The notes below the pieces were generated by a model that did no database searches, had not been told where the DNA came from, and saw only the letters and a program-made list of their open reading frames with translations. The translations under genes and the position numbers were made by a program. A stretch of 37,526 nucleotides of DNA, from the NCBI GenBank assembly GCA_021731095.1, contig JAKFYA010000033.1, forward strand, positions 1-37,526, in the 5' to 3' direction. This document shows, in pieces, positions 1,651-33,909 of this stretch (within the stretch, counting starts at the first letter, position 1; every line of letters starts with the position of its first letter). Source of the DNA: Acidobacteriota bacterium. Lineage in GTDB: Bacteria; Acidobacteriota; Vicinamibacteria; Vicinamibacterales; UBA2999.

Positions 1651-1688
1651 GTTGCAGTGAGAATGCATCGTTATGACAACGCTGTCAA
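1651..1688 (-). promoter_or_regulatory. Candidate glbN promoter/operator: TTGACA (-35-like) plus an imperfect palindrome centred on ATGCAT
   Basis: The minus strand reads cTTGACAgcgttgtcataacgatgCATTCTcactgcaactt-ATG. TTGACA is at 1688..1683, followed after 17 nt by a weak -10 (CATTCT). GTTG-N8-ATGCAT-N8-CAAC dyad symmetry spans 1651..1680. There is no clear Shine-Dalgarno sequence. Motif-level evidence only. Confidence 0.3.
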
Positions 1689-10934: not shown

Positions 10935-11083
10935 CCCCGAACCGGGATCCGTGCCTGTCCGGACGGCCGTCCGGGCGCCGGACGCCCGGCTGAGCCTGGT
11001 GTCGCCAGGCCGTCCGCGCTGACGGTGCTCCGGCGTCCAACCCGTCGGATCAGCGGAAATATCGCGCAATTAGAGGACTCGAG

Positions 11084-11100
11084 CGACACCACTGGTGTCG
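11084..11100. promoter_or_regulatory. 17-bp perfect palindrome CGACACC-ACT-GGTGTCG, 35 nt upstream of the first gene of the 12-gene operon (candidate operator or leader hairpin)
   Basis: Read directly: cgacacc act ggtgtcg at 11084..11100. It is followed by ...caggcGGGAGcactcATG (SD at 11126-11130, ATG at 11136). Confidence 0.3.
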
Positions 11101-11135
11101 GTATCCCACTTGCACAACAGCAGGCGGGAGCACTC

Positions 11136-11840
11136 ATGTCCATCATCCTGGCCCATCGGGGCAATACGAACGGTCCGCATCCGGCAACCGAGAACTCGGC
11201 CACCGCCATCCGCCATGCCCTCTCGCAGGGGTTCGGCATTGAAATCGACATCAGGCGCGACGCGCGTGGGCGCTTCTACGTCTCTCACGACCCCAGGTCC
11301 ACCGCCGATGGCGCGCCGGCCGAGGACGTGATGCGGCTGCTGCGTGCCCACCCGGGTGCCATGGCCGCGATCAACGTGAAGGAGCTGGGCTACGAAGCCG
11401 AGCTGCTGCAGTTCCTCGACGCCCAGGGCGTCCTGGGCCAGGCCTTCCTGTTCGACATGGAGCTCATCGAGCCGCACGCCGGTGAGACGGCGCGACACCT
11501 GCGCATCTTGCACCCGCGTGTGCGACTCGCAGCCCGGGTCAGCGACCGCGGCGAGTCCATCGAGCGCGCGCTGGCCATTCCTTCGGCCAGCATCATCTGG
11601 CTCGACGAGTTTGACGGCGCGTGGGTCACCGAGGCCGACGTGCGACGGCTGAAGCAGGCCGGTCGCCTGGTGATCGCCGTGTCGCCCGAGCTGCACGGCG
11701 CGGGCCCCGAGGCCACAGGCAACCGCTGGGCCGACTTCATGGCGTGGGGCGTCGATGGACTCTGCACGGACTTCCCGTCTGCCTTCTCGCAAGTGGCGGC
11801 CCGGCTGGCGATGCCGGTGTCGTTCCGGGTGGCGGCATGA
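11136..11840 (+). CDS. Glycerophosphodiester phosphodiesterase (GDPD)-family protein, short form
   Basis: ORF-track frame 11025..11840 trimmed to ATG 11136 (GGGAG SD upstream). ILAHRGN...ENS.TAIRHALSQGFGIEIDIRRDARGRFYVSHD matches the GDPD HR..EN..E.D..HD catalytic N-terminus. Confidence 0.75.
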   Translation: MSIILAHRGNTNGPHPATENSATAIRHALSQGFGIEIDIRRDARGRFYVSHDPRSTADGAPAEDVMRLLRAHPGAMAAINVKELGYEAELLQFLDAQGVLGQAFLFDMELIEPHAGETARHLRILHPRVRLAARVSDRGESIERALAIPSASIIWLDEFDGAWVTEADVRRLKQAGRLVIAVSPELHGAGPEATGNRWADFMAWGVDGLCTDFPSAFSQVAARLAMPVSFRVAA

Positions 11841-12190
11841 AGTTGCGCAAGCTCTCTGACATGACCGGCGGCTGGATGGTCGGCAACTTCGACCCTGTCT
11901 GCTACCGCACCGAAGCATGCGAAGTCGCGTGCAAGCACTACCCCGCCGGGGCCCGTGAAGGGGCGCACGTGCACCGCGTCGCCAGTGAACTCACGCTCAT
12001 TGCCGCGGGCCGCGCGCTGATGAATGGCCGCACGCTCGAGGCTGGCGACATCGTCATGCTCGAGCCGGGCGAGGCCGCCGACTTCCAGACGCTGGAGCCG
12101 ACCACCACGGTGGTTGTGAAGATGCCAAGCGTCATGGGCGACAAATTTCCGGTCGACCCCTCGGTCGTCCGACGCGAGGTCACCGCATGA
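11837..12190 (+). CDS. Small cupin-fold protein
   Basis: ATG 11837 overlaps the upstream stop (ATGA). 117 aa. GAREGAHVHRVASELTLIAAGRALMNGRTLEAGDIVMLEPGE is a cupin motif 1/2-like pattern (H.H....E...G......G......GD). Confidence 0.65.
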   Translation: MKLRKLSDMTGGWMVGNFDPVCYRTEACEVACKHYPAGAREGAHVHRVASELTLIAAGRALMNGRTLEAGDIVMLEPGEAADFQTLEPTTTVVVKMPSVMGDKFPVDPSVVRREVTA

Positions 12191-12846
12191 GCCGCATCTC
12201 CGCTGTGCTGTTTGATCTGGATGGTGTGCTGGTCGACGCGACCGAGTGGCACTACGAAGCGCTCAACCGCGCGCTGCGGCTCTTCGGCTTCGACATCACC
12301 CGCTACGAACATCTGTCGGCCTACAACGGCCTGCCCACGAAGAAGAAGCTCGAGATGCTGAGCGTGGAAAAGGGGCTGCCAGCTCCCATCCACGGCATGC
12401 TCAACCGGCTGAAGCAGGTCTACACCCGCGACGAGATTCTGACGCGGTGCCGGCCGGTGTTCGAGAAGGAGTACATGCTCAGCCGGCTGCGCCGAGACGG
12501 CTACCGGCTGGCAGTCTGCTCGAACTCCATCCGCGAGAGCCTCGAGCTGATGGTGCACCAGTCAGGACTCGACCCCTACGTCGAGTTCCTGGTGAGCAAC
12601 GAAGATGTGCGGGCGCCCAAGCCCGACCCGGAAATCTATCGCACGGCCATGGCGCGCATGGGCGTGTCGCCTGCCGAGACGCTGGTGGTCGAGGATGCCC
12701 CGCACGGGGTGGAGGCGGCCCGACGCTCCGGCGCGCATATCTGTCAGGTGTCCGGCTTCACGGAGGTCGACTACTTCCGTGTCCGCACGGCCATTGATCG
12801 CGCCAACGGCGCCCCCGCAACGATTGTCGAAAGGATGGCAGCGTGA
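12187..12846 (+). CDS. HAD-superfamily (subfamily IA) phosphatase/phosphomutase-like hydrolase
   Basis: ATGA overlap with the cupin gene. It has AVLFDLDGVLVD (DxDG motif I), AVCSNS (motif II), K..PDPEIY (motif III Lys) and VVEDAPHGVEAARRSGA (motif IV). Confidence 0.88.
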   Translation: MSRISAVLFDLDGVLVDATEWHYEALNRALRLFGFDITRYEHLSAYNGLPTKKKLEMLSVEKGLPAPIHGMLNRLKQVYTRDEILTRCRPVFEKEYMLSRLRRDGYRLAVCSNSIRESLELMVHQSGLDPYVEFLVSNEDVRAPKPDPEIYRTAMARMGVSPAETLVVEDAPHGVEAARRSGAHICQVSGFTEVDYFRVRTAIDRANGAPATIVERMAA

Positions 12847-13577
12847 TTCACATCGTCGTACCGATGGGCGGTGAAGGCCGCCAGTTCCAGGAACGTGGCT
12901 ACACGTTCCCCAAACCGCTCGTCGAGGTGGCCGGGCAGCCGCTCATCGAGCTGGTCGTCGAAAATCTCACGCCACTCGGCGAGCACCAGTTCGTCTTCGT
13001 GTGCCGCCATGAGCATGTGGAGAAGTACTCGCTCGATCACGTGCTCGAACTGGCCGCCCCGGGTTGCCGTGTGCTGCCGATGCGCCAGCCGACGGCCGGT
13101 GCCCTGTGCAGCGTCCTGCTCGGCATGGAGCATCTCCAGAACGATGACGAGCTGCTGATTGCCAACGCGGACCAGTGGATTGACGAGCCCATCGACAACT
13201 TCCTGTCGGCCGCCCGTCTGGCCAATCTGGACGGTTCCATCATGACCTTCCCGAACACACACCCCCGCTGGTCCTACGTGCGGACCGAGAACGACCTGGT
13301 GGTGACGGTGGCCGAGAAGCAGCCCATCAGCCGGCAGGCCACGGCGGGCCTGTACTACTTCCGCCACGCCTCCGACTTCCTGGACGCGGCCGAACGGATG
13401 CTGCTGAAGAACGCCACCGTCGCGGGCGAGTTCTATGTCGCGCCGGTCTTCAACGAATTCATTCTCGCCGGCAAACGGGTAGGCACGTTCCACCTGGATG
13501 CCTCGCAGATGCACGGCCTCGGCACGCCCGAGGAAGTGGAACGCTTTGCGGCACGCCTCTTCGAGCGGGCCGCGTAA
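12843..13577 (+). CDS. Sugar-phosphate nucleotidyltransferase-like protein (GT-A fold), paralogue 1
   Basis: GTG 12843 overlaps the HAD stop (GTGA). IVVPMGGEGRQFQERGYTFPKPLVEVAGQPLIE is the G-loop/PKPL signature of NTP_transferase enzymes. It also has ...NADQWID, GEFYVAPVFN and a C-terminal HGLGTPEEVERF (like the W.D.GTPE motif). Confidence 0.75.
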   Translation: MIHIVVPMGGEGRQFQERGYTFPKPLVEVAGQPLIELVVENLTPLGEHQFVFVCRHEHVEKYSLDHVLELAAPGCRVLPMRQPTAGALCSVLLGMEHLQNDDELLIANADQWIDEPIDNFLSAARLANLDGSIMTFPNTHPRWSYVRTENDLVVTVAEKQPISRQATAGLYYFRHASDFLDAAERMLLKNATVAGEFYVAPVFNEFILAGKRVGTFHLDASQMHGLGTPEEVERFAARLFERAA

Positions 13578-13588
13578 CCCGGAGTCTC

Positions 13589-14338
13589 ATGCTGAATATC
13601 GTCCTCCCCATCGCCGGGCGCGGCAGCCGCTTTGCTGACGTCGGCTACACCCAGCCGAAGCCGCTCATCCCGGTGCACGGTCTCCCGATGATCGAGGCAG
13701 TGGTCCGCAATGTGCGACCGCATGCCCCGCATCGTTTCATCTTCGTGGCGCTGCGCGCCCATCTCGATCACCTCGGCATGCGCGAGACGCTGGAGCGCTG
13801 CGCACCTGGCTGCGTCATCGTGCCGGTGGACCAGGTCACCGAGGGTGCGGCGTGCACGGTGCTGCTGGCCAAGGCGCTCATCAACTCGGACGACCCGCTG
13901 ATGCTGGCCAACAGCGACCAGTGGGTCGACATCGACATCAACGACTACCTTGGCGAGATGGACCGTCAGCAGGCCGACGGCCTGATCATGACGATGGACG
14001 CTGACGATCCGAAGTGGTCGTTTGTCGGCCTGACGATCGACGGGCTCGTGACGCGCGTGGTCGAGAAGGAAGTGATCTCGAACGAAGCGACAGTCGGCAT
14101 CTACAACTTCCGGCGCGGCGCGGACTTCGTGCGCGCGGCCGAGCAGATGATTGCCGACGACCTCCGTGTGAATGGCGAGTTCTACGTGGCACCGGCCTAC
14201 AACAGTCTGGTCGCCGAAGGCGCCCGCATCGCGGTCTACAACGTGGGCAGCGAGAACGACGGGATGTATGGCCTCGGCATCCCGACAGACCTCGAGCGCT
14301 TCCTGTCCAACCCGCTCTCGCTCAAGGCGGTCGCCTAG
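13589..14338 (+). CDS. Sugar-phosphate nucleotidyltransferase-like protein (GT-A fold), paralogue 2
   Basis: GGAG SD at 13581-13584. IVLPIAGRGSRFADVGYTQPKPLIPVHGLPMIE, NSDQWVD, GEFYVAPAYN and YGLGIPTDLERF align collinearly with the upstream gene over nearly the full length without gaps (roughly 35-45% identity by eye). Confidence 0.75.
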   Translation: MLNIVLPIAGRGSRFADVGYTQPKPLIPVHGLPMIEAVVRNVRPHAPHRFIFVALRAHLDHLGMRETLERCAPGCVIVPVDQVTEGAACTVLLAKALINSDDPLMLANSDQWVDIDINDYLGEMDRQQADGLIMTMDADDPKWSFVGLTIDGLVTRVVEKEVISNEATVGIYNFRRGADFVRAAEQMIADDLRVNGEFYVAPAYNSLVAEGARIAVYNVGSENDGMYGLGIPTDLERFLSNPLSLKAVA

Positions 14339-14340
14339 CC

Positions 14341-15642
14341 ATGTTCACCGTCGCGCCGCACGCTCCGGTCAGCCGCGTCGATGCGGCCACGCTGGCGTCG
14401 GCGCTGGGGGCCCTTCATGCCCGCACCACCACCGTGGTGGGCTGGGGCTCTGGCAGCGTGTTCGACTACTTCCAGCGGCTGCATCCGGTCAGGCTGGACT
14501 ATCTGGTCGACAGTGATGCCACCCGGTGGGGCTCGTCCCGACTCGGCGTGACGATTCATGCGCCACAACGCCTGCTGGCCGAGGTGGAGGCCACCACGCT
14601 CGTGGTGATTTACTCCTCTGCCTGGCCGGCCATCCAGCAACAACTGGCTCGCCTCGGGCACTTCCTGGCCGTGCCCGCCAGTGCCCTCTTTGCCGACGCC
14701 GCGACACACGCGCGGCTTGAGCACCTCGATTCACTCGGTGCGCAGACGCCGACGCGGCGCGTGCCCACCTCGCGGGACGCCGTCGTCGTGCAAGGACCGG
14801 TGGTGCCAGGCATGACGGAGCGAGTGCTGCGGGCGCTGTCAGCGCTCCACACCAGGAACCGGATCGTGCTGTCAACCTGGGCCGGAACGGACGGGTCGCT
14901 CCTCGACGCGGTGCGCGGCTATGTGGACGACCTGGTGCTGTCGGACGCACCAGCCACGGCAGGCATCCAGAACCGCAACTACCAGCTGGTGTCGACGCGC
15001 GCCGGAGTCGCCCGCGCGATGGCGGCTGGGGCGACCACCATCCTGAAGACCCGCACCGACCTGGCCGTGCTCGCCCCGGCAGTCTTTGACCAGGCGCGCT
15101 GGTGGCTGGCCCGCGCGGGCAGCGATGCCTCGCGCGCGACAGGCCTGTCCGGTCGCCTCATCGTTCCGGCCAGCTACACGCGGAAGTATCTGCTGTATCA
15201 CCCCTCGGACATGGTGATGCTGGGCGCCGCTGAGGACATGGCGCGCTTCTGGAGCGCGCCGCTCGACCCGCGCGACGGAGATCTGCTGACGCCCGAGTGG
15301 CTGCAGCAACCGCTGGCCTCCGTGAATCTGGCGGGCAACCCGGCCGAGAGCTATCTCGGCCTGGCGTTCTGCCGCTCGCTCGGCCGACCGGTCGTGGGTA
15401 CGCTGCGCGACAGCTGGTCGTTCTACCGCGACCTGTTCGCCGTGGTCGACAACGACTGGTTCGACCTGCTCTGGCTGAAGAACCTCTCCATTCCCGATGC
15501 GGCCCTGCGGAGTGGCGTGCGCCAGACCATTGGCCAGCAGTTCTGGACCCGCCTCCAGATGCACGACGCCGCACTCGAAGCCGAACTTGATGCCGTCGAT
15601 CCTGCGTCCCTCTCGCTCGGCGCCCTGGCAGGTGCGGCGTGA
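14341..15642 (+). CDS. Two-domain enzyme: N-terminal NeuD/PglD-N-like Rossmann module + WavE-like (LPS/glycan synthesis) domain
   Basis: ORF-track frame 14014..15642 trimmed to ATG 14341, 2 nt after the upstream stop (the upstream extension overlaps the previous gene). The N-terminus reads VVGWGSGSVFDYF...LDYLVDSDATRWGSS. The remainder (IVLSTWAG.D....., ...ILKTRTDL..., YHPSDMVMLG) resembles my memory of the WavE family. The family call is from recall, not a search. Confidence 0.55.
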   Translation: MFTVAPHAPVSRVDAATLASALGALHARTTTVVGWGSGSVFDYFQRLHPVRLDYLVDSDATRWGSSRLGVTIHAPQRLLAEVEATTLVVIYSSAWPAIQQQLARLGHFLAVPASALFADAATHARLEHLDSLGAQTPTRRVPTSRDAVVVQGPVVPGMTERVLRALSALHTRNRIVLSTWAGTDGSLLDAVRGYVDDLVLSDAPATAGIQNRNYQLVSTRAGVARAMAAGATTILKTRTDLAVLAPAVFDQARWWLARAGSDASRATGLSGRLIVPASYTRKYLLYHPSDMVMLGAAEDMARFWSAPLDPRDGDLLTPEWLQQPLASVNLAGNPAESYLGLAFCRSLGRPVVGTLRDSWSFYRDLFAVVDNDWFDLLWLKNLSIPDAALRSGVRQTIGQQFWTRLQMHDAALEAELDAVDPASLSLGALAGAA

Positions 15643-16244
15643 CCCGCACCGTAGCCACCACGCCGCACGCCCTGCCACTGGTGGCGCGGCGTGGCCTGTG
15701 GGACAAGTTTGCCGGGCCAGGCTCTGCCGAGGCCATCACGCGGGGGTACCGGCGCGGCGTCGCCAGCATCCTGGGGTGCGCGGAGGGTGCGTCACTTCAG
15801 GAGCTCGCCACGCTGGTTGGCAACCCGGTGGTCAACCCCACGCGGCAGCCGCTGTATCTCATGGTCGAGTCCCTGCCCACACACACGACGCCGTTGCGGC
15901 ATCTGGCCGGCTGCGGCGTCGAGACCTTTGCCGTGACCAATGGCATCGAGGGCGGAGCATGGCCGCTTTACCGCTGGACCGGCAACGCCTGGACGCTCGC
16001 GGGTCGCTATGTGCCAGCGTCGATGGCCGGTCACACGCTGAGCACCGCAGACTTCTCGGACGCGGACTATGCACAGCAGGTGGTGTTGACCGAGGCCGCG
16101 AATGTGTCCGGACCCGAGGATGACGCCGCCGACGCCGAACGGCTGGGTGCCCTGCGCGTGCTGGCAGGCCCGCACGCCGTCTTCGTTCGGGTGAGTGACT
16201 TCGTGGAGTTCGACCTGCTCGTGCGGCAGCAGAGGGCAGCCTGA
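15639..16244 (+). CDS. Hypothetical protein (no recognisable motifs)
   Basis: 201-aa ORF whose GTG start overlaps the upstream stop (GTGA). It sits inside the coupled operon, has coding-like composition and no TM segment. Confidence 0.55.
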   Translation: MTRTVATTPHALPLVARRGLWDKFAGPGSAEAITRGYRRGVASILGCAEGASLQELATLVGNPVVNPTRQPLYLMVESLPTHTTPLRHLAGCGVETFAVTNGIEGGAWPLYRWTGNAWTLAGRYVPASMAGHTLSTADFSDADYAQQVVLTEAANVSGPEDDAADAERLGALRVLAGPHAVFVRVSDFVEFDLLVRQQRAA

Positions 16245-16246
16245 GC

Positions 16247-18190
16247 ATGGCCCTGCACGAGCTGCCACGGTTCCGTCGCGCCTCCGATCTGCCGAGCGGC
16301 GCCGCCCTGCGTCAGGCGCTGCAGCCGCATCTGTCGACGCTGGCCGCCACGCCCTGGACCTACTGTGGCTATACGCCGCTGCCAGACCTGCACGGCGTGC
16401 GCCCCTCACTGGACCTGACGATGACGGTCGACAACCAGACCGTCCTGACACAGGCCTGCGGGTTTGAACGGCAGACAGCGGTGGTCACGGCAGGCCTCCG
16501 CGCCTCGCGCTTCGCGCCTGTGCTGTGCTGGGAGGTGCTGCACACGCTGGCCCCCGGCGGACTCTGGATTGATGTGGACGTCGACAGCCGGTGCCGGGGG
16601 ACGGCCCTCACGCCGCTCGATTTTCCGGCGCGCGACTACGCACGCCTCTGCCTGACGGCGGAATCGCAGCAGGTCGCTGGGGCGGTGCGCACCACGGTCT
16701 GGCGCAAGCATGCCGCCTCTCCTCTGGCCGCGCACGCCGGGGACGCAGGTTGGACCTTCGGCATCCTGACCGCCGGCGACTCGCCGCGCGCAGCCCGGAT
16801 GGCCCGAGCCCTGCTGGCGCTGGACCTTCCGGCGGTGGAAGTCATCTTCTGCGGACCGCGTCCGAACGACGCGCCCTCGGACCCGCGCGTGCGCGCCATC
16901 GACCTCGACACGCCGGAGCCGCGCGGGTGGATTACGCGGAAGAAGAACCTGCTGGCCACGGCGGCCCGCCACGAGCGGCTATGCCTGCTGCACGACCGCT
17001 ATGAGGTCACGCCTGCCTGGGCCCGCGCGCTCGGCACACTGGGCTCCAGCCTGTCCGTGGCGACCTTCCCGCAGGTCTGGCTGGCCGATGTGGACGGACG
17101 CTTCCCGCAGCGGTACGCCGACTATCAGGTGCTGAGGCAGGATCAGGCGCTCGCCGAGGCCAGGAACGGCAGGCTCTACGCCGGCGACCGCGTGTTCTAT
17201 GCGCCCTACGACGACTTTGCAGAGACGGCGTTCATCTGCGGGGGCCTGTATGCCACCACGCGCACGGTCTGGACGCTGGTGGGACAAGACGACACGCTCT
17301 ATCACGGCGAATGGGAGGATGTGTCCTTCGGCCTCGACTGCCAGCGCGCGGGCATTCCGCACCGCGTCAGCCTGGCCATGACCGTCGAATCGGTCAACCC
17401 GCACCCGATGGCGCTCACGCGCATCCATGATCTGGTGGCGCCGGACGTGCCGACGCCCGGCCGCTTCCACGTGTCGGCTGCCCAACTGGAGACCGCGAAG
17501 CGCGAGCCGTGGCGGTTCAAGCCGCTGTTCACCACGTCACGCCACGCCTACTACACTCGCGTGCTCGCCCGTCTGAATCGGGTGCCCGGCCTGGACGCGT
17601 CGCTCGGCCTCGGTGCGGTCGCGAACTGCACGGGACTGGCGGACTTCTGGCGTGTCATTGACGCTTTCGTCCGGCGACAGCCGCTGGCCACGCGCGAGGC
17701 GCAGGCCGGCGTGCTCCACTTCCTGTCGGACACGATCTACAACTGGCCCAACGGCGAACTGCTGCAGTGGCTCGCCGCCAACGAACGGGCGCGCGCCGCT
17801 CAGGACCTGCCCGCTGGAGGCACCCTCGTTGGCTGGGGCACGGGTGCTCAGTTCCGGGCTCTCCACACCTCGCTCGACCGCCCGCTCGACTTCGTCGTGG
17901 ACAGTGACGCGACCCGCTGGGGCACCACCATCGAAGGCTGCACCGTCCGATCGCCAGAGATCCTGGCCACGCTTGATCCCTCACGTACGGTGATCGTGGT
18001 GTTCTCAGCCTTCCGTGACGAGATTCGCGCCGCGGCCCGCGCGTTCGGCGATTTCCGCGTGGTGGCCGCTCCGGACGTGGCCACGTTGCGCCCGTTCCAT
18101 CCGCTTACCGACATGGTGGCCCACTTCGAGGAAGTGGAGCACTGCTATCCGGTCACCTTCCACGCAGACACCCTTGAGGCCGCAGCATGA
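16247..18190 (+). CDS. Three-part protein: degenerate methyltransferase-like N-region, GT-A-like glycosyltransferase core, C-terminal NeuD/PglD-N-like Rossmann module
   Basis: 647 aa, ATG 2 nt after the upstream stop. The N-region has VLHTLAPGGLWIDVD (like MTase post-motif LKPGG) but no GxGxG. The centre reads WTFGILTAGDSP...VEVIFCG...GWITRKKNLLATAARHERLCLLHDRYEV...GEWEDVSFGLDCQRAGI (GT-A-like: beta1, acidic HD/DxD-like, ED helix). The C-terminus reads LVGWGTGAQF...LDFVVDSDATRWGTT. Confidence 0.5.
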   Translation: MALHELPRFRRASDLPSGAALRQALQPHLSTLAATPWTYCGYTPLPDLHGVRPSLDLTMTVDNQTVLTQACGFERQTAVVTAGLRASRFAPVLCWEVLHTLAPGGLWIDVDVDSRCRGTALTPLDFPARDYARLCLTAESQQVAGAVRTTVWRKHAASPLAAHAGDAGWTFGILTAGDSPRAARMARALLALDLPAVEVIFCGPRPNDAPSDPRVRAIDLDTPEPRGWITRKKNLLATAARHERLCLLHDRYEVTPAWARALGTLGSSLSVATFPQVWLADVDGRFPQRYADYQVLRQDQALAEARNGRLYAGDRVFYAPYDDFAETAFICGGLYATTRTVWTLVGQDDTLYHGEWEDVSFGLDCQRAGIPHRVSLAMTVESVNPHPMALTRIHDLVAPDVPTPGRFHVSAAQLETAKREPWRFKPLFTTSRHAYYTRVLARLNRVPGLDASLGLGAVANCTGLADFWRVIDAFVRRQPLATREAQAGVLHFLSDTIYNWPNGELLQWLAANERARAAQDLPAGGTLVGWGTGAQFRALHTSLDRPLDFVVDSDATRWGTTIEGCTVRSPEILATLDPSRTVIVVFSAFRDEIRAAARAFGDFRVVAAPDVATLRPFHPLTDMVAHFEEVEHCYPVTFHADTLEAAA

Positions 18191-19506
18191 GCAGCGGAAC
18201 GCTTCGCTATCTCGCCATGGAGCGCGAGTTCTACGCCGACCTGGTCGCCCGCTCCGACTACTCGGACGAGCGCTTCACCGAGCAGGACTCTGCCGAGCTG
18301 ATCGTCGGCAGCTATGCCCAGCATGAGCGATTCGACTACGAGCGCTGGCTGTGCGGCGGGCTGGCCATCTATCCCGGCGCTGTGGCGCTGGAGTTCGGGT
18401 GCGGCCCCGGCCGGATGCTGCGGCGGATGGCGCCCCACTTCTCGCGCGTCGATGGTGTGGACATTTCGCCTGATGTCCTTGATGTCGCGCACCGCAGGTG
18501 CGCCGAGTTGGCCAACCGGCCCCGTCTGTGGGCCATTGACGGCCAGCATCTGCCGCGCGAACTGGCCTCCGCCTATGACGTGGCCTTCTCGGTCATCTGT
18601 CTGCAGCACATTGCGGTGCATAGCGTGCGCCGGCGCATCTTCGCGGAGCTGTTCCGCGCGCTCAAGCCCGGTGGCGTGCTGACCTTCCAGATGGGCTATG
18701 GCCCCGGTCATGCGGCGATGGTCGACTACTACGCCGACTATGTCGATGCGGCCGGCACCAACGGCGAGGCGGATGTGACCGTGCTCCACCCCGGCGAGAT
18801 TGGGGAGGACCTGAAGCAGGCCGGCTTCGGCCCCATGGCCTATGCCCTCACCCCAACCGGCCCCGGCGACACGCACGGGGCCTGGATCTTCGTGCGCACC
18901 ATGAAGCCCGGACCCGTGAGGGCGCGCGTGAGCACGTCCCCCGCTGGCTGGAGCGCAGTGGGCTTCGAACCGCTGGAGCTGGACACGGACGCGCTGTGGG
19001 ACGCGCGCCGTCGCCAGCTCGAGCATGGCACCCTGGCCCGTTTCCGCAGCCGCACGCAGGAGCTGCAGGCGGCTGAGGCACGGGTGGCTGTGGCCGAGGC
19101 ACACGTGACCGCAGCGAACGTCGGTCGCCAACAGGACCTGGAGGTGCGCAACGCGCAGCTGGCCCGCCTGCAGGCGCTCGACGCGCCGCGACTCCACGCC
19201 CTGATGTCAGACCTCGCGACCTGGGCCGGCGACACGCGCCACGTCGCCATCCTCGGCTCAGGCGCTCAGACCGAGTGGCTGCTCGGCGAGACGCCGCTGG
19301 GTCTGCTGGGTCACCTCTCGATCATCGACAACAACCCGGCAGCCGTGGGACGCCTCGTGGGCGGCCTGCCGGTCAAGGGTGGCCATGAACTTGCACAACT
19401 GGCACCTGACGCGGTGGTGCTCACCTCACTCAGTCATCAGAACGAGATGGCGGCGTTTGTCGAAGGCCTCAGTCTGGCCGGCACTCGCCTTGTCCGTTGC
19501 TACTAA
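18187..19506 (+). CDS. Class I SAM-dependent methyltransferase fused to a coiled-coil linker and a C-terminal Rossmann-like module
   Basis: ATGA overlap with the upstream gene. It has ALEFGCGPGRMLRRMA (motif I), VDGVDIS (motif II acidic), DVAFSVICLQHI and LKPGGVLTF. Residues ~270-340 are heptad-like (ELQAAEARVAVAEAHV...LEVRNAQLARLQAL). The C-terminus reads HVAILGSGAQTEWLL...LSIIDNNPAAVGRLVGGLPV. Confidence 0.82.
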   Translation: MSSGTLRYLAMEREFYADLVARSDYSDERFTEQDSAELIVGSYAQHERFDYERWLCGGLAIYPGAVALEFGCGPGRMLRRMAPHFSRVDGVDISPDVLDVAHRRCAELANRPRLWAIDGQHLPRELASAYDVAFSVICLQHIAVHSVRRRIFAELFRALKPGGVLTFQMGYGPGHAAMVDYYADYVDAAGTNGEADVTVLHPGEIGEDLKQAGFGPMAYALTPTGPGDTHGAWIFVRTMKPGPVRARVSTSPAGWSAVGFEPLELDTDALWDARRRQLEHGTLARFRSRTQELQAAEARVAVAEAHVTAANVGRQQDLEVRNAQLARLQALDAPRLHALMSDLATWAGDTRHVAILGSGAQTEWLLGETPLGLLGHLSIIDNNPAAVGRLVGGLPVKGGHELAQLAPDAVVLTSLSHQNEMAAFVEGLSLAGTRLVRCY

Positions 19507-19531
19507 CAACCGGTTATCTGGAGATCTGCTG

Positions 19532-21325
19532 ATGTCCGCTTCGCCCGCTTCCTCTGTCCGCGTCATCGAGCGCGACGGTTATGCCCTGACGAACCACCGG
19601 GCGCTCTGTCGGCGCGCCGTCCTCTGGATCGGCCAGACGTGCAACCTGCGTTGCCACTTCTGCTACTTCCTCGACAAGATCACCGACCGGAACCACCCTG
19701 AGCATGACTTCCTGCCGCTCGACAAGCTGAAGGCGATGTGCAAGACGCTCGTCGATGTGTATGGCAACAACGCGGTGGACATTCAGGGTGGCGAGCCGAC
19801 GCTCTACCGCCATCTCGTGCCGCTGCTGCAGTACTGCAACGAAATTGGCCTGAAGCCGACGCTCATCACCAATGGCCAGGTGCTGGCCAATCCGGACCGG
19901 GTGAAGCAGTTGCAGGACGCCGGTGTCTACGACCTGCTCATCAGCGTGCACGGCCTGGGCAAGCGCTATGACCGCATTGTCGTGGTGGATGGCGCAGCCG
20001 AGAAACTTCGCAAGGGCATCGACAACGTGGCGGCGGCTGGCGTGCCGTTCCGACTGAACTGCGTCCTGGCGACCGAAGCCTTGCCTGACCTGCTGGGCGT
20101 GGCGAAGCTGGCCGTCGCCAAGGGCGCACGCGCGGTGAACTTCATCGCCTTCAACCCGTTCGTCGACCAGGCCTGTGGTGGCAAGCGCAGCGCGGAGAAC
20201 GTGCCGCGCTACAGCGAGGTGGTGGAGCACCTCCTGCCAGCCATCGACCTGCTGGACGCGAACGGCATCGAGGTGAACGTCCGGTACCTCCCGATGTGCC
20301 TCTTCCCCGAGCGATATCGGAAGTTCCTCCAGAACTTCCAGCAGATCGTGTACGACCTGCACGAATGGGAGAGCGCCGGCGAGGCCTGGTCGAGCCAGGC
20401 TCCACAGCGCGAGGCGGCGGCGCCGCTGAGCGAGCCGGTCGACTTCTTCCGCTACATCGAGTCACTGCGGTTGCGCGGCTTCGCCGACCTGCTGCCCGAG
20501 CTGGCCGACAACCGCCACTGGAGCCCCTCGGTGGGTACCACGCTTGACGCGCTCGAGGCGCTGGTGCGCGCGGCAGGGCGGCCGATTACGGTCAGCCTCT
20601 ATGGCAGCGCCGCCGTGGCCCAGTCGCTCATGCAGGCGGCACGCTCTCGCGAAGCGCTGCTGGATGGTCTGGTCTTCTCCGCCCTGATCTCTTCGCCCGA
20701 GTACCGGACGGCTGACACCCATCTGGGCCTGCGGTGGGAGTCGCCGGACTGGCTGGCGGCGAACCCGACGGACGTGGTGGTGAACACCTCGGAAAGCTCG
20801 CGCCGCATCATCACGCGGGCGTTGGCTGAGCGTGGTCTGGGTGGCCGCACGGTCGAAGTGTTCGGCGAGTTGGGCAAGACGGCGCTCCCGGCGTCCACGG
20901 AGACCCATCCGATTCTCCGCTTCCAGGGACGGCAGGGCTACGAGTACACCCACTACCTGCCCGAACTGGGACCGTTCGAGTCGACCGGTGTGCTGGAGGA
21001 GGCCTACAAGGAGTTCCGCGTGCTGATGGCCAAGACCATCCACCCCTACTCGAAGGGATCGGCCTGCGGCGACTGTTCACTGAAGGGCATCTGCGACGGC
21101 TTTCACAAGGACTACGCCGAGATCTTCGGCTTCGATGAGGCGAAGACGGTCACGCTGAGCAGCCAGGTCTACGACCCGTGCCACTACTCGAACGACCAGC
21201 TCAAGGTGGTCGAGGCACAGGAGTACGACTGGGCCCTTCCCGAAACGCACCCGCTGGCGCAGCAGGCGCGGGCGGCAAAGGGTGAGACCGCGGCGATGGC
21301 GGTGCGCGCGGGCGGGAGAATGTAA
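19532..21325 (+). CDS. Radical SAM enzyme with long non-canonical C-terminal extension (internal Rossmann-like module + terminal Cys-rich motif)
   Basis: ORF-track frame 19379..21325 trimmed to ATG 19532 (TGGAGA upstream). It has CNLRCHFC (CxxxCxxC, nt 19639-19662), GGEPTL (SAM glycine motif), the TIM-barrel-like LITNG.., and NFIAFNP. Residues ~350-445 read ITVSLYGSAAVAQSL...VVVNTSESS. Near the C-terminus is ACGDCSLKGICDGF (nt ~21064-21096). Confidence 0.85.
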   Translation: MSASPASSVRVIERDGYALTNHRALCRRAVLWIGQTCNLRCHFCYFLDKITDRNHPEHDFLPLDKLKAMCKTLVDVYGNNAVDIQGGEPTLYRHLVPLLQYCNEIGLKPTLITNGQVLANPDRVKQLQDAGVYDLLISVHGLGKRYDRIVVVDGAAEKLRKGIDNVAAAGVPFRLNCVLATEALPDLLGVAKLAVAKGARAVNFIAFNPFVDQACGGKRSAENVPRYSEVVEHLLPAIDLLDANGIEVNVRYLPMCLFPERYRKFLQNFQQIVYDLHEWESAGEAWSSQAPQREAAAPLSEPVDFFRYIESLRLRGFADLLPELADNRHWSPSVGTTLDALEALVRAAGRPITVSLYGSAAVAQSLMQAARSREALLDGLVFSALISSPEYRTADTHLGLRWESPDWLAANPTDVVVNTSESSRRIITRALAERGLGGRTVEVFGELGKTALPASTETHPILRFQGRQGYEYTHYLPELGPFESTGVLEEAYKEFRVLMAKTIHPYSKGSACGDCSLKGICDGFHKDYAEIFGFDEAKTVTLSSQVYDPCHYSNDQLKVVEAQEYDWALPETHPLAQQARAAKGETAAMAVRAGGRM

Positions 21326-23478
21326 TGGCCGCGCCGCGTCGCGTCCTGTACTTCGCCGAGAATGCGCTGAGTGCCATCCAGGGTGGTGGCATCGTGGCCT
21401 ATGCCGTGCTGAAGGGATTGCCGGCTGACCATCTGCTTGGCTTCTTCGAGTACCGCAACATCACGCCGGTACCGGAGTATGCGGAGCGCTTTGTCCACCT
21501 GGGACAGGCCTGGCGCGCGCCCCGTGCGCTGGCGCGGGTGAACCGGTGGACCCGCGGCCTGACGGCCGACCTGCTGAAGCGCCTGTGGCCCGATGCGCAC
21601 GTGGCGCAGGATCTGGCGTTCGTGCAGGCGCAGGTGGCCTCGCGGGCGTTCACGCCGGACGTGGTGTACTTCGCGGGCCTGTCCTACCGCTATCTGCGGC
21701 TGGCCGTCATGGCCGCCGAGCACTACGGCGTGCCGATGGTGCAACTGAACATGGACGACTGGATGCAGGTGGAGACCGAGGCGGCTGGCCGCTTCGGTGG
21801 GCGCTGGTCGCGCCTCATCACCCGCGAACTGACCCGCGCCTCTGCGGCCTCCCTCGTGAGCACCAGCAACTCGCCGCGACTGGCCGCCAGGCTCTCGGCC
21901 ATGACCGGCCACCAGCATGTTGCGGCCAACAACTGTTGCGATGACCTGATGGCGCATGCCACGGACACGGCGGTCGAGCCGAGTCCCGTCCCGGTGATCA
22001 CCTACGCAGGGGCCATGAACGTGAACCTCCAGGGCGAAACCCTGAAGGTGCTGGCCAGTGCAGTGGCCGAGCTGAATGCCGAAGGCACGCCCGTCCACCT
22101 GCACATCTACACGCCGTGGGAGTTCGCACCGCTTGCCAACAGCATTGCGGTGCCTGGCGCCGTGTTCTACAAGGGGCAGGTGGGGCGCGCAGCACTGGCA
22201 GACATCTACCGCGCTTCGGACTTCCTGGCCACCACGGTGACCTACCGCGAGAAGCACATCTCGCTCTTCCGGCACTCGCTCTCGACCAAGCTGTCCGAGT
22301 ACCTGTGCGCCGGCAAGCCGGTGCTGTCGATGGGTCACTACGACTGGCATCTGCACGAGTACGTGCAGGAACACGGATGTGGCTTCTCGGTGCTGATGGA
22401 CGAGGCCTTTTCCAGGGCCGCCATCAAAGCGCAGCTTCGCCAGATTCTGGCAACGGACCCGGCGTTGCTCGCCACCATGGGTCAGCGAAACCGCGCACTC
22501 TGGGAGCGGGCGCACGACGTCGCCCGCATGGCGCGCGAGACGCGCCAGGCGCTACGGCTGACGGTGGAGGCCGCACCCCGTGAGCGCGATACGCGCCGCG
22601 GCGTGATCTGGATGGGCGAGGCCACCGGACGAGCCTGGGTGCCCGCCGCAAAGGCCATGGCCATCGCACGCCAGTTGCGCGATGTCTACCATCACCAGGC
22701 GGTGGATCTGGTGGGCACGGGCGTCATGGCCCACCCCGCCATCGCCGACGTGCAAGGCTATTGCACCGACATCGGTCTGTCGCCGTCCGTAGTGGACGCC
22801 GAGGTCGCGGATCCCCTCGACCTGCGGTACGAGCCGGCCGGGTCACGCTGGTCACTGGCCGACGCGCAGCGACATCCGACGGCGTCGCTCACGACGCCGC
22901 CCGACGTCTTTGCCCAGGTGGCCGACCTGCGCAACGAGGTGCCCCGCACCACACCAGCGGCGCGTGCCGTCCAGGCCCTGTCCGTCCGCGTGTCCGAGTT
23001 TGCCACCAGGAAGCCGGTGGTGTGGGCCTATGGCGACACCACGGCTGGCCACGACGTGCTGTCCGCCATCGCTGCGCACCCGTGGCTGGGCCACGCCGTG
23101 CGGATTGGCGGCTTCCTGGCTGAACCCCACGCGGGTGGCACCGACATCCTGCACGGACGCACACTGCGCAGTCTTGATCGGCTCATGCCGGACGATGCCG
23201 ACGTGGTCTTCATCACCGACGATGCCGCTCGACTGGCACGGATGGAGGAGCTGTCGCGCCACGGTCTCCTGGGTCGCACCGTTCCGCTGTTCGGCACCTC
23301 GGCCGACCAGCCGCCCTACGAACGTCACCCTCTTGGGCCGGGCCAGACCTTCGGTGAAGGCCTGACGGCCCTGGACTACGCCACACGCGAGCTGGCCGCC
23401 AGAACGCGCCCGAAGGCCATTGGCTGGACCGACGACGGGTTCGACGAGGAACGCGAACCCCTTCGACGAGTCGGCTAG
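21325..23478 (+). CDS. GT-B fold glycosyltransferase (GT4-like) fused to a ~300-aa C-terminal region containing Rossmann-like module(s)
   Basis: The ATG shares its A with the upstream TAA (TAATG). The N-terminal ~410 aa read RVLYFAENALSAIQGGGIV..., ITYAGAM...., FRHSLSTKLSEYLCAGKPVLS (E-x7-E-like sugar-donor motif). The C-terminal part includes PVVWAYGDTTAGHDVL...IGGFLAEPHAGGTDILHGRTL...ADVVFITDD. Confidence 0.75.
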   Translation: MAAPRRVLYFAENALSAIQGGGIVAYAVLKGLPADHLLGFFEYRNITPVPEYAERFVHLGQAWRAPRALARVNRWTRGLTADLLKRLWPDAHVAQDLAFVQAQVASRAFTPDVVYFAGLSYRYLRLAVMAAEHYGVPMVQLNMDDWMQVETEAAGRFGGRWSRLITRELTRASAASLVSTSNSPRLAARLSAMTGHQHVAANNCCDDLMAHATDTAVEPSPVPVITYAGAMNVNLQGETLKVLASAVAELNAEGTPVHLHIYTPWEFAPLANSIAVPGAVFYKGQVGRAALADIYRASDFLATTVTYREKHISLFRHSLSTKLSEYLCAGKPVLSMGHYDWHLHEYVQEHGCGFSVLMDEAFSRAAIKAQLRQILATDPALLATMGQRNRALWERAHDVARMARETRQALRLTVEAAPRERDTRRGVIWMGEATGRAWVPAAKAMAIARQLRDVYHHQAVDLVGTGVMAHPAIADVQGYCTDIGLSPSVVDAEVADPLDLRYEPAGSRWSLADAQRHPTASLTTPPDVFAQVADLRNEVPRTTPAARAVQALSVRVSEFATRKPVVWAYGDTTAGHDVLSAIAAHPWLGHAVRIGGFLAEPHAGGTDILHGRTLRSLDRLMPDDADVVFITDDAARLARMEELSRHGLLGRTVPLFGTSADQPPYERHPLGPGQTFGEGLTALDYATRELAARTRPKAIGWTDDGFDEEREPLRRVG

Positions 23479-24606: not shown

Positions 24607-25482
24607 TCAGCCTTCGAGCGGCGTCCAGCGGCCGTTGCCGAACCTGAAGCGGGTCTCCCGGGCGGTGAAGCCATTGACCGGCGGATAGAGCGGGTCCCCG
24701 GGCAGGGCCAGGAGCTTGCCGCCCTCCTCTTCTTCGACCTCGAACAGCCGCGGCTGCACCATCCAGCGGTGCGGGCCCGCGGCCCAGGCCAGAGCCTCCT
24801 CGACGGTCGCCCACTGCTCCAGCCAGCGCAGCGTGGTCCAGGTGGGCGGCGCCAGCAGCACCTCGCCGCGGCGGCAGCCGTCCAGCGCATCACCCGGTCG
24901 CATCCAGACAGCCTCGGTGGTCTCCCCGTCGTCGCGCAGCGGCTCCTGCCCGTCGGGCGCGAGCGCCATGAAGAAGCGGACGTCATACCGCTTCGTCTCG
25001 CTCTCCGGCGTCACCCAGTGGCCGAATGGCAGCAGCGCCGCCAGATTGAAGCGCAGATGCTCCCGCGCCGCAAACCCCTCAAGCGTGGTCTGGCCGTCGG
25101 CGATACGGCCGCGTGCCGCCACCCGATGCGCCTCGTCTGGCAGACGCCAGCCAGATGCCGGCTCGGCCAGCAGCAGGCCGGTTTCCTCGAATAGCTCGCG
25201 GATGGCACCAACCGCGTGTGCCACCGCGTCTACGGACGGCAGGTCGTGGGCCAGACGGGCCGCCACGACATCAAGTCCGGTGCAGCAGCGGGCCGGCTCC
25301 GCCAGCCTGTCGGTCGGGTCGAGGCGTCCTCCGGGAAACACGCTGGCGCCGCCCATGAAAGCCACCTCGTCGTGGCGGCGGACCAGACACACCTCGACGC
25401 CGGCGGTGGCGGGGCGCACGAGCACGACGGTGGAGGCGGGACGGGGCGTACGGACGGTCATGGCTGGAGGCGCGCCTTTCAC
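24607..25482 (-). CDS. NUDIX-family hydrolase
   Basis: 291-aa ORF. It has FPGGRLDP.... and the GAIRELFEETGLLL Nudix box (REx2EExGU). The start is either GTG 25482 (GTGA overlap with the upstream protease stop) or ATG 25461. Confidence 0.8.
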   Translation of the reverse strand: MKGAPPAMTVRTPRPASTVVLVRPATAGVEVCLVRRHDEVAFMGGASVFPGGRLDPTDRLAEPARCCTGLDVVAARLAHDLPSVDAVAHAVGAIRELFEETGLLLAEPASGWRLPDEAHRVAARGRIADGQTTLEGFAAREHLRFNLAALLPFGHWVTPESETKRYDVRFFMALAPDGQEPLRDDGETTEAVWMRPGDALDGCRRGEVLLAPPTWTTLRWLEQWATVEEALAWAAGPHRWMVQPRLFEVEEEEGGKLLALPGDPLYPPVNGFTARETRFRFGNGRWTPLEG

Positions 25483-33906: not shown

Positions 33907-33909
33907 CCT

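Follow-up and report, generated by a model that had tools for sequence, protein, structure and literature searches.

The stretch of DNA that we analyzed, referred to below as the window, is 37.5 kb long and holds, between positions 11136 and 23478, 11 plus-strand genes (G1 to G11) in one tightly packed operon. The first-pass annotation had spoken of 12 genes, but it lists only 10 junctions and 11 products. When re-read in the sequence, all ten junctions were as it described them: genes overlap as ATGA at 11837, 12187 and 18187, as GTGA at 12843 and 15639, and by 1 nt (TAATG) at 21325; spacers of 2 nt stand before 14341 and 16247, and longer ones of 11 nt before 13589 and 25 nt before 19532, both containing GGAG. 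GC3 is 0.83–0.88 in all 11 frames and similar in the flanking hemH, mreB and K-channel genes, so the frames are real genes whose composition shows no sign of recent transfer. Among the products, Kyte-Doolittle means over 19 residues reach at most 1.53, below the usual transmembrane threshold of 1.6, so that by this crude test a transmembrane helix is predicted in none of the 11, as had been judged before by eye. No exporter, polyprenyl-phosphate priming transferase, polymerase or chain-length regulator was found in the block or elsewhere in the window, and no carrier protein in the window; the earlier claim that export, polymerase and priming functions are missing thus holds for the whole 37.5 kb.

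Gene products and their domains

The operon opens with G1 (11136–11840, 234 aa), a GDPD-type phosphodiesterase whose Pfam GDPD score (E 1.4e-5) is just above the cut-off and which has only marginal GDPD matches in a sequence search of the PDB (E at least 0.07). Its catalytic motifs (HRG, EN, ExD and HD) are intact, by which it is an active-looking enzyme, and most of its 531 homologues come from Vicinamibacterales. G2 (11837–12190, 117 aa) is a small metal-binding cupin, with a Cupin_2 score (E 0.007) below the Pfam cut-off and a readable cupin motif 1 (G-x5-H-x-H-x4-E-x6-G). G3 (12187–12846, 219 aa) is a HAD-IA hydrolase of the β-phosphoglucomutase/YqaB subfamily (HAD_2, 1.3e-33; TIGR02009, 1.3e-29, under that model's cut-off), and among solved structures it comes closest to a sugar-phosphate phosphatase, a HAD-type inorganic pyrophosphatase and β-phosphoglucomutase. 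The nucleotidyltransferases (NTases) G4 (12843–13577, 244 aa; NTP_transf_3, 2.7e-14, and NTP_transferase, 9.6e-11) and G5 (13589–14338, 249 aa; NTP_transferase, 2.5e-10) are paralogues with 42% identity. Together with the Pfam-less GT-A domain that forms the core of G8, G1 to G5 constitute a cassette spread over many phyla, in which G5 is the best-conserved gene (60–65% identity between phyla; best PDB match 4evw, itself uncharacterised) and is in many phyla adjoined by a G2-type gene. The cassette also occurs in organisms that lack bacterial flagella, DPANN archaea and CPR bacteria among them, and its recurring neighbors in other phyla encode GT2 and GT4 enzymes, SDR epimerases, methyltransferases and B12-radical SAM enzymes.

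G6 (14341–15642, 433 aa) consists of a Rossmann-like module (residues ~10–143) and a WavE-family domain (6.4e-13), and had no match in the PDB sequence search. G7 (15639–16244, 201 aa) is a conserved protein without a match in Pfam or NCBIfam; in relatives it comes before G8, and four G8-type proteins (P0050, P0065, P0073 and P0074) carry it as a fusion, which marks it as a partner of G8. G8 itself (16247–18190, 647 aa) has no Pfam, CAZy or PDB sequence match and is rare, with 27 representatives at E<=1e-30 among 1.84 billion. In its AF2 model (pLDDT 88), a methyltransferase-like N-terminal domain is followed by a core with a GT-A glycosyltransferase fold (~165–385), for which Foldseek returned GlfT2, K4CP and ppGalNAc-T (E about 1e-7), and by a Rossmann-like module (~520–611); the invariant motif of this GT-A-fold protein is H249-D250-R251 rather than DXD. 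The module of G6 is homologous to the C terminus of G8 (E 1.7e-12, and also by HMM) and recurs in G9 (18187–19506, 439 aa), in which a class I SAM methyltransferase (Methyltransf_25, 1.3e-17) is connected by a coiled linker to a C terminus that matches the module HMM (E 3.7e-5) and, weakly, Methyltransf_14. By marginal scores (Foldseek E 1e-3 to 0.2; Pfam Methyltransf_14 E 0.005–0.04), this module resembles the accessory domains of the C-3-methyltransferases TcaB9 and KijD1 and of PglB/VioB/NeuD-type acetyltransferases, which we take to bind nucleotide sugars; unlike in those enzymes, here it rides on glycosyltransferases too.

G10 (19532–21325, 597 aa) is a radical SAM enzyme (PF04055, 5.6e-19) with the cluster motif CX3CX2C (C37-X3-C41-X2-C44) inside the Radical_SAM domain and further C-terminal cysteines in a CX2CX5C arrangement (C512/C515/C521/C550). 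No NCBIfam equivalog reaches its cut-off for G10, and its remote PDB relatives are PqqE, BlsE, MoaA and DesII. G11 (21325–23478, 717 aa) joins a GT-B glycosyltransferase (~1–410) to a degenerate copy of a G10-like protein. It has no Pfam match of its own and its GT-B part had no match in the PDB sequence search; PF13692 (Glyco_trans_1_4, GT-B) is found on most of 90 homologues. Residues 26–112 and 279–461 of G10 align with residues 423–490 and 502–670 of G11, longer G11 homologues cover nearly all of G10, and CX3CX2C is missing from G11 and from the six homologues examined; judged by these alignments, the C-terminal half of G11 is a cysteine-less pseudo-enzyme domain derived from a G10-like protein. 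In a deltaproteobacterial locus (L002), G9 and G10 are fused, and the fusions of G9 with G10, of G7 with G8, and of G11 with a G10-like domain argue that the enzymes serve one pathway. The family guesses of the first-pass annotation were verified (GDPD, cupin, HAD, two NTases, WavE, the orphan G7, the GT-A-like G8, SAM methyltransferase, radical SAM and GT-B), the cupin by its motif, G8 by its model fold, and G11 through its homologues.

Promoter region and genomic context in relatives

Upstream of the first gene lies a sigma-54-type promoter-like element, GGTATCCCACTTGCA (GG-N8-TTGC; 11100–11114, plus strand, as are the sites below), with −24 GG and −12 GC at canonical spacing, 36 nt before the G1 start. 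A palindrome read directly in the sequence, CGACAC-N5-GTGTCG (11084–11100), abuts its −24 element, the same motif family occurs in related loci, and a GTGTCG half-site at 10999–11004 is a candidate site for an enhancer-binding protein. Such half-sites (GTGTCG/CGACAC) show a 6.5-fold enrichment in the 250 nt that lead up to gene 1 in Vicinamibacterales loci, where most lie 113–160 nt ahead of the start codon. Each of the nine independent loci from this order has a sigma-54-type element ahead of gene 1, at 26–47 nt and once at 88 nt, against a background for this pattern of 26 matches per 75 kb on both strands; outside the order it was found in one of about 40 loci, at −133. Sigma-54 control is not peculiar to flagella.

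The order of the block is kept in Vicinamibacterales (Acidobacteriota): all 11 genes stand in identical order in L004/L005 (75–96% amino-acid identity per gene) and in L001, and near-complete versions occur in L008/L069, L009 and L010. In six other Vicinamibacterales lineages, the block or a G1–G6 variant of it lies in a neighborhood of Maf, Mot or nonulosonate genes, and the same Maf-type context is seen in deltaproteobacterial, gammaproteobacterial and Gastranaerophilales metagenome-assembled genomes (MAGs). An MptE-like Maf gene is 1–5 kb from the block in L001, L008/L069, L009, L010, L040/L068, L042, L002, L071 (gammaproteobacterial) and L072 (Gastranaerophilales), those of L009, L010 and L042 having been found by tblastn; MotA/MotB genes are at the block in L001/L070, L068 and L042, and nonulosonic-acid genes beside it in L002 and L070. 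In L001/L070, MotB and a MotA_N-containing gene flank the block, and a convergent operon encodes a HAD protein, NeuB, an ATP-grasp protein, a CMP-sugar synthetase, MotA, MotB, a PseB-like dehydratase, a GT4 enzyme, an MptE-like Maf and a methyltransferase. L068 reads MotA-MotB, G1–G6, methyltransferase, GT2, methyltransferase and a Maf-methyltransferase fusion, L069 has an 861-aa Maf directly after the block, and in L002 the block stands between DegT/CMP-synthetase/NeuB genes and a Maf gene with a TPR protein. This context of the relatives is a flagellin glycosylation island.

Pfam searches, with tblastn for MptE-like PF01973, found no flagellar, Maf or nonulosonate gene in the 11 kb upstream or the 14 kb downstream of the block, nor are there any in the near-twin L004/L005. 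A flagellar role in this genome is thus assigned from relatives only, by homology and context. The first-pass annotation was to be refuted if homologous blocks always lay in ordinary export loci, and in part they do. A Wzm/Wzt-type exporter (ABC2_membrane/ABC_tran) abuts homologous genes in Thermoanaerobaculia (L006 and L014), Holophagales (L018), Myxococcales (L017), one other MAG (L073) and Calothrix (L021), so that the chemistry is not intrinsically export-free, but the closest loci, in Vicinamibacterales, are Maf/Mot-linked.

Proposed acceptor and product of the pathway

We prefer, with confidence that stops halfway, the reading that the block is a sigma-54-driven, wholly cytoplasmic glycan-elaboration operon that is functionally part of a Maf-type flagellin glycosylation system. 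The operon structure, the folds and families, the genomic association in relatives and the conserved −24/−12 element are observed; from these we infer the acceptor, the order of the steps and the product. Starting from phosphorylated central metabolites, G1 to G5 would make one or two nucleotide-activated donors, with G3 acting as phosphatase, mutase or pyrophosphatase, the metal cupin G2 pairing with the NTase G5, and G4 serving as a second NTase. Probably while still nucleotide-linked, the donors would be tailored by the methyltransferase G9 and by G10, the radical SAM enzyme. Three soluble glycosyltransferases, the WavE-type G6, the GT-A enzyme G8 (partnered by G7) and the GT-B enzyme G11, would transfer them to an acceptor made elsewhere, most likely a flagellin glycan linked through nonulosonic acid. 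Glycosylation of flagellin takes place in the cytoplasm ahead of export (PMC4065374), and Maf proteins transfer nonulosonic acids to it there, before export (PMC4065374, PMC3426422, PMC11339370). As flagellin, once glycosylated there, exits by the flagellar export apparatus, the pathway would need neither a flippase nor a polymerase nor a lipid-priming enzyme, and the flagellum-glycosylation islands of relatives would explain the missing exporter. Of the two options in the first-pass annotation, a modified small molecule or glycoconjugate and cytoplasmic glycosylation of an acceptor encoded elsewhere, the second is thus favored, with a protein as acceptor, since in most relatives the block lies in Maf/nonulosonate/Mot islands. 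Its statement that no characterised pathway fits this set of genes holds up: none of the block's products reaches the cut-off of an NCBIfam equivalog, PDB sequence searches gave no match for G6, G8 and the GT-B part of G11 and marginal ones for G1, and literature searches turned up nothing. The lack of flagellar, Maf and nonulosonate genes around the block and in L004/L005, the exporter-linked distant relatives, the non-flagellate carriers of the cassette and the non-specificity of sigma-54 were counted against a flagellar role, as was the general O-glycosylation in Tannerella in which MptE-like transferases also act (PMC5420450).

The alternative that survives best, though we consider it doubtful, is a side-branch or terminal-cap module for a surface polysaccharide (O-antigen, capsule, EPS or S-layer glycan), with the priming enzyme and exporter encoded elsewhere in the genome. 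The ABC exporters that abut homologues in other lineages, the ordinary polysaccharide genes that neighbor the cassette in other phyla, and the naming of WavE for an LPS-core gene are all in keeping with this; against it, the hydropathy test marks none of the 11 products as membrane-associated, the 37.5 kb contain no exporter or priming gene, and the phylogenetically nearest loci, all from Vicinamibacterales, are linked to Maf/Mot and not to exporters.

Rather unlikely, in our estimate, is a Kennedy-like pathway to a phosphodiester-linked non-sugar decoration on a glycan, comparable to FtaABCD of Clostridium difficile, in which a phospho-alcohol or phospho-amino acid, formed with the help of HAD and GDPD, would be converted by an NTase to a CDP or NDP derivative, methylated and transferred. 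The block has the HAD protein, the NTases and a methyltransferase bearing a possible nucleotide-binding module, the G1 phosphodiesterase site is intact in sequence, and there is no kinase; but a TagF-like phosphotransferase is absent, G11 homologues match GT1-type families and G8 matches GT2-type folds, and G3 is HAD-IA and not of the phosphoserine-phosphatase/ThrH type. Such a decoration is compatible with the flagellin reading and not exclusive of it.

Glycosyl-glycerate-type solutes are made by pairs of a GT-A enzyme and a HAD phosphatase, natural-product clusters often hold pairs of radical SAM enzyme and methyltransferase, and the block's enzymes are all soluble, without carrier or exporter, but a soluble small molecule with no macromolecular acceptor (a glycosylated, methylated phospho-compound such as a compatible solute, signal or antibiotic) is improbable, as three separate glycosyltransferases better fit oligosaccharide building, no gene for regulation, resistance or efflux accompanies the block, and all informative neighborhoods found are protein- or polysaccharide-glycosylation loci.

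A further idea is the most speculative that we offer: the block and the widespread G1–G5 cassette might produce a nucleotide-activated metabolite not described so far, with all of the decoration assembled in solution on a nucleotide rather than a lipid carrier. G6, G8, G9 and possibly G10 and G11 would be tethered to that carrier by their appended small Rossmann-like or pseudo-radical-SAM domains, and the finished unit might pass in one step to flagellin, or to an ABC-exported glycan in other phyla.

Comparison with known systems

Loci for ABC-dependent O-polysaccharide or capsule have distant homologues of G1–G5, G7/G8, G10 and G11 directly beside ABC2_membrane/ABC_tran genes. In contrast, the block and the window hold no such transporter, no priming transferase and none of the polymerase or chain-length regulator genes of Wzx/Wzy- or ABC-dependent loci, and the block has no predicted membrane protein.

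FtaABCD comprises a HAD-type phosphotransferase, an NTase that forms CDP-threonine, a SAM methyltransferase with this CDP-threonine as its substrate, and a phosphotransferase; it establishes for CDP-threonine that a nucleotide-activated donor can be tailored before transfer, a precedent for the tailoring proposed here. Like the block, FtaABCD and PA1088–PA1091 of Pseudomonas aeruginosa (post-glycosylation modification) unite a HAD enzyme, an NTase and a SAM methyltransferase in a single operon for flagellin glycans that has no kinase, and their methylation of a nucleotide-activated intermediate ahead of its transfer is what is proposed for the block. The block is set apart by enzyme types: its HAD is of the IA/β-phosphoglucomutase subfamily, where an Fta-type set (C. 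difficile type A, P. aeruginosa b-type) has a PSP/ThrH-like HAD, an NTase, an N-methyltransferase and a TagF-like phosphotransferase, the last not found here, and beyond that set it has the GDPD, the cupin, a second NTase, three glycosyltransferases and the radical SAM enzyme.

Maf-type flagellin islands (Campylobacter, Helicobacter, Aeromonas, Clostridium botulinum and Geobacillus) share with the block the reliance on soluble cytoplasmic enzymes without flippase or polymerase, and their accessory methyltransferases and NTases are typical, as in the block. Its relatives share their locus with MptE-like Maf, NeuB, CMP-nonulosonate synthetase, PseB-like dehydratase and motor genes, whereas the window has neither a Maf nor a nonulosonate nor a flagellar gene. 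The GDPD/cupin/HAD/double-NTase cassette, the WavE enzyme, the Pfam-less GT-A enzyme G8, the radical SAM enzyme and the GT-B/pseudo-radical-SAM fusion did not appear in full-text literature searches or in the papers on flagellin glycosylation that were consulted. For Aeromonas hydrophila AH-3, the likeness drawn is one of product type: its polar flagellin carries a nonulosonate-linked heptasaccharide with variable phosphate and methyl groups (PMC3958885), and a product of this kind would, by analogy, call for a methyltransferase and enzymes that handle phosphate groups, besides several soluble glycosyltransferases.

An operon of eleven soluble enzymes

We read the block at 11136-23478 (+) as a locus for tailoring flagellar or surface glycans, in which several uncharacterised families are combined with a widely distributed precursor cassette. 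The operon is genuine, has clear limits and was rightly recognised in the first-pass annotation, which counted 12 genes. There are actually eleven (G1-G11, numbered 5' to 3'), as in that annotation's own lists of ten junctions and eleven products; the remaining long ORFs are antisense only, such ORFs being common in high-GC DNA. All ten junctions were verified in the sequence: neighbouring genes overlap in ATGA at 11837, 12187 and 18187 and in GTGA at 12843 and 15639, stop and start share a single base in the TAATG at 21325, only two bases separate the genes before 14341 and before 16247, and the longer spacers of 11 nt before 13589 and 25 nt before 19532 each contain GGAG. Third-position GC is 0.83-0.88 in all eleven frames, the same as in the ferrochelatase, MreB and K-channel genes that flank the block, and these are therefore genuine genes; the overall GC content of the block also equals that of its flanks, which argues against recent horizontal transfer. 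Eight of the eleven proteins end in alanine and six in Ala-Ala (stop codons of G1-G9, 11838-19506), an AA terminus also being found in many G8 homologues. The GCA-TGA and GCG-TGA start/stop overlaps account for the final alanine but not for the penultimate one.

The absence of transmembrane helices, first judged by eye, is borne out by a simple hydropathy test, which predicts none (the maximum 19-residue mean over all block products is 1.53). Neither the block, as had been claimed, nor the remainder of the 37.5-kb window contains a carrier protein or any gene for export, polymerisation or priming, and the eleven genes include no kinase, dehydratase or aminotransferase. Outside the block, the window is devoted to transport, signalling and housekeeping. 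An RNase II/R-family gene (1685-3180, -) is split into two overlapping ORFs, one (2500-3180, -) corresponding to RNB positions 2-137 and the other (1685-2524, -) to RNB 160-325 plus an S1 domain, which indicates a frameshift, whether in a pseudogene or through an assembly error. Downstream of the block, a trypsin-like serine protease (25479-26504, -) carries a C-terminal PEP-CTERM sorting signal, implying an exosortase system in the organism, and an array at 26612-35820 (+) consists of two tandem paralogous kinases of ~1215 residues (PAS, GAF, HisKA_2/HWE), overlapping by 4 nt, followed by a hybrid histidine kinase/response regulator.

Enzyme families, a shared module and a pseudo-radical-SAM domain

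Searches of Pfam and NCBIfam uphold the family guesses made for the block products, at differing strengths. G1 matches GDPD just above the Pfam cut-off, with catalytic HRG, EN, ExD and HD motifs readable, and G2 is a small cupin with a sub-threshold Pfam score and an intact metal-binding motif 1. G3 belongs to HAD-IA, its closest solved relatives being a sugar-phosphate phosphatase, a HAD-type inorganic pyrophosphatase and beta-phosphoglucomutase, while G4 and G5 are paralogous nucleotidyltransferases sharing 42% identity, for which the sole close match among solved structures is a Vibrio protein that is itself uncharacterised. These families do not name the product of G1-G5: the NCBIfam and PDB neighbours of G3 span phosphatase, pyrophosphatase and mutase, and those of G4 and G5 are generic sugar-1-phosphate nucleotidyltransferases, which together justify no assignment. 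G6 has a WavE domain, G7 matched no family, and G8 has no match in Pfam, NCBIfam or PDB sequences, profile search included, its model (pLDDT 88) displaying a GT-A core like that of GlfT2, chondroitin polymerase and polypeptide GalNAc-transferases. Two SAM enzymes follow: G9, a methyltransferase of class I, and G10, a radical SAM protein whose CX3CX2C motif spans residues 37-44 and which also has a CX2CX5C cysteine cluster near its C-terminus; the solved relatives of G10 (PqqE, BlsE, MoaA, DesII) are all distant. G11 has a GT-B domain, and most of its 90 homologues have a PF13692 record. None of the ten proteins scanned (G1-G10) reached an NCBIfam equivalog cut-off, in agreement with the earlier statement that the block matches no characterised pathway. 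PDB sequence searches with G1, G6, G8 (single sequence and profile) and a profile of the G11 N-domain returned nothing useful, and literature searches on WavE/PF07507 and on the cassette composition found nothing relevant. G7, the GT-A core of G8 and the C-terminal part of G11 have neither a Pfam model of their own nor a solved relative detectable by sequence.

The large enzymes are also related to one another. A Rossmann-like module of ~100 residues is common to the N-terminus of G6 and the C-termini of G8 and G9 (BLAST E 1.7e-12; a module HMM matches G9 at 3.7e-5), and is missing from more distant G8 homologues. Its model (pLDDT 82) has only weak matches, to Rex-type NAD domains, the WbpM N-domain, the N-domains of PglB/VioB acetyltransferases and the C-domains of the KijD1/TcaB9 sugar C-methyltransferases, and three of 12 module sequences weakly match Pfam Methyltransf_14. 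On marginal scores, and by analogy with TcaB9 and PglD, the module may be nucleotide-binding. We rejected the idea that it occurs in all five large enzymes, since the HMM backs G6, G8 and G9 only (G10 scores E 0.14 and G11 is unmatched); G10 and G11 have a homologous region of their own instead. The C-terminal ~300 residues of G11 (~423-717; window 22590-23478) are a degenerate, internally shortened copy of G10, and in longer G11 homologues (919-1177 residues) nearly the whole of G10 can be aligned at 30% identity. The cysteine triad CX3CX2C is absent from G11 and from all six of the homologues examined, and G11 is therefore a GT-B enzyme fused to a pseudo-radical-SAM domain. Elsewhere, G9 and G10 are fused in an 825-residue protein (locus L002) and G7 is fused to G8, which argues that these enzymes act on one pathway.

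Genomic neighbourhoods and a sigma-54-type element

The comparative context is what points to flagella. G8 is rare (75 clusters among 5.8 billion proteins, and only 27 at E<=1e-30 among 1.84 billion representatives), and the closest loci are from Acidobacteriota, for the most part Vicinamibacterales. The block likewise lies between ferrochelatase and a K-channel gene in a near-twin locus, L004/L005, whose genes show 75-96% identity at the amino-acid level. In all other Vicinamibacterales lineages with sufficient flank fetched, the block or a G1-G6 variant lies in a flagellar glycosylation island. Loci L001/L070 have Mot genes on both sides of the block and a convergent operon encoding HAD, NeuB, ATP-grasp, CMP-sugar synthetase, MotA, MotB, PseB-like dehydratase, GT4, Maf (an MptE-like flagellin glycosyltransferase) and a methyltransferase. 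The order in L068 is MotA-MotB, G1-G6, methyltransferases and GT2, and a Maf fusion; an 861-residue Maf directly follows the block in L069, and Maf is also present in L009, L010 and L042. Farther afield, a deltaproteobacterial MAG has DegT/CMP-synthetase/NeuB on one side of the block and Maf on the other, and homologous blocks in a gammaproteobacterial and a Gastranaerophilales MAG are Maf-associated too. On the contig shared by L070 and L001, motor and glycosylation genes are unusually closely tied, with MotA/MotB (L070 16807-18392) lying inside the nonulosonic-acid/Maf operon between the CMP-sugar synthetase and the PseB-like dehydratase. A type I-C CRISPR-Cas system (Cas3, Cas5d, Csd1) and a Fic gene (L072 17420-21284) lie a few kb from the Gastranaerophilales Maf locus.

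The first-pass view of the block as exporter-free stands for this window but not for every relative: in Thermoanaerobaculia, Holophagales, Myxococcales and one further MAG, the homologous genes directly adjoin an ABC2_membrane/ABC_tran pair. These exporter-linked relatives favour an alternative that we consider rather unlikely, in which the block would be a branch or cap module for a surface polysaccharide with its exporter encoded elsewhere. A soluble small-molecule pathway, supported by no neighbourhood, is improbable.

Part of the block is much more widespread. Among 61 genome loci retrieved via the G8-type GT-A core, so that association was measured in the direction from core to cassette only, 42 have G1, G3 and a nucleotidyltransferase within the fetched flank, together with a cupin in 37 and a WavE gene in 20 of these. 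Hosts include Planctomycetota, Verrucomicrobiota, Gemmatimonadota, Actinomycetota (Cellulomonas marina, Subtercola boreus), Calothrix, Rhodanobacter, CPR bacteria and DPANN archaea, the recurring neighbours are ordinary glycan genes, and no Pfam model covers the GT-A core in seven of seven diverse representatives. G7, full-length G8, G10 and G11 co-occur only in a narrower set of loci. The block is thus an ancient cassette of precursor and transferase genes to which a tailoring layer was added later. Several distant loci with the G8-type core (L011, L039, L066 and others) contain B12-binding radical SAM genes in tandem arrays of three or four, which hints at extensive radical methylation of the same glycan class.

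A conserved promoter-like element provides a handle on regulation. The sigma-54-type sequence GGTATCCCACTTGCA (GG-N8-TTGC, N8 being the canonical sigma-54 spacing) lies at 11100-11114 (+), 36 nt before the G1 start, and GG-N8-TTGC is found 26-47 nt (once 88 nt) 5' of gene 1 in nine of nine independent Vicinamibacterales loci (L001, L004, L009, L010, L035, L042, L061, L068 and L069), the sequence around it not being alignable. With 26 occurrences in 75 kb on both strands, ~0.05 is expected per 150-nt upstream region, and nine of nine is therefore far beyond chance, relatedness allowed for. In ~40 loci from other groups it occurs within 150 nt 5' of gene 1 only once, at -133. GTGTCG/CGACAC half-sites, some of them forming TGT-N10-ACA palindromes, are 6.5-fold enriched farther upstream, at the position expected for candidate sites of an enhancer-binding protein; in the window, element and half-sites together fall within 10999-11114. 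This suggests a putative Vicinamibacterales regulon under enhancer-binding-protein control. A scan for sigma-70 promoters and intrinsic terminators, which is uninformative in this phylum, found nothing.

A proposed pathway and its parallels in known systems

We propose, giving it about an even chance, that G1-G11 form a cytoplasmic pathway in which activated donors are made, tailored and added to a nonulosonate-linked flagellin glycan. The operon structure, the folds, the genomic associations and the conserved promoter-like element are observations, from which we infer the acceptor, the order of steps and the product as follows: G1-G5 would convert phosphorylated metabolites into one or two nucleotide-activated donors, G9 and G10 would tailor these, probably in the nucleotide-linked state, and G6, G7/G8 and G11 would transfer the tailored donors to the nonulosonate-linked glycan on flagellin. 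The flagellar assignment for this genome, whose 37.5-kb window holds no flagellar genes, is drawn from other genomes. An attractive sub-hypothesis, compatible with flagellin-glycan tailoring, is a Kennedy-like phosphodiester decoration in the manner of Fta, the flagellin-glycan modification operon of C. difficile (FtaABCD). The active-looking phosphodiesterase G1 and the lack of a kinase fit it, but the block has no TagF-like transferase: G11 was considered for this role, and its homologues match Glyco_trans_1_4 with no TagF signal.

Decorations on flagellin and surface glycans influence motility as well as recognition by phages and the immune system, and to our knowledge their chemistry is hardly known except in a few pathogens. 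With this operon comes a defined pathway of 11 enzymes, all soluble, from Acidobacteria, a soil phylum that is dominant yet little studied. It includes the three families without a Pfam model (G7, the GT-A core of G8 and the pseudo-radical-SAM part of G11) and a radical SAM enzyme, G10, with no assigned reaction. Naming the compound made by the G1-G5 cassette, much as CDP-threonine was recently identified in its own system, would annotate hundreds of loci together.

Known systems offer parallels for several features of the flagellin-glycan pathway proposed here. In Maf-dependent systems flagellin is glycosylated before it binds its chaperone and leaves by the type III route (PMC4065374), which would explain why the block has no export or lipid-priming function. 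In Aeromonas hydrophila, flagellin bears a nonulosonate-linked heptasaccharide with phosphate and methyl groups (PMC3958885). A caveat to the flagellar reading is that in Tannerella (PMC5420450) non-flagellar O-glycosylation, too, involves MptE-like transferases. Finally, CDP-threonine is methylated by C. difficile FtaC prior to transfer, a precedent for the tailoring of a nucleotide-linked donor that G9 and G10 may carry out.
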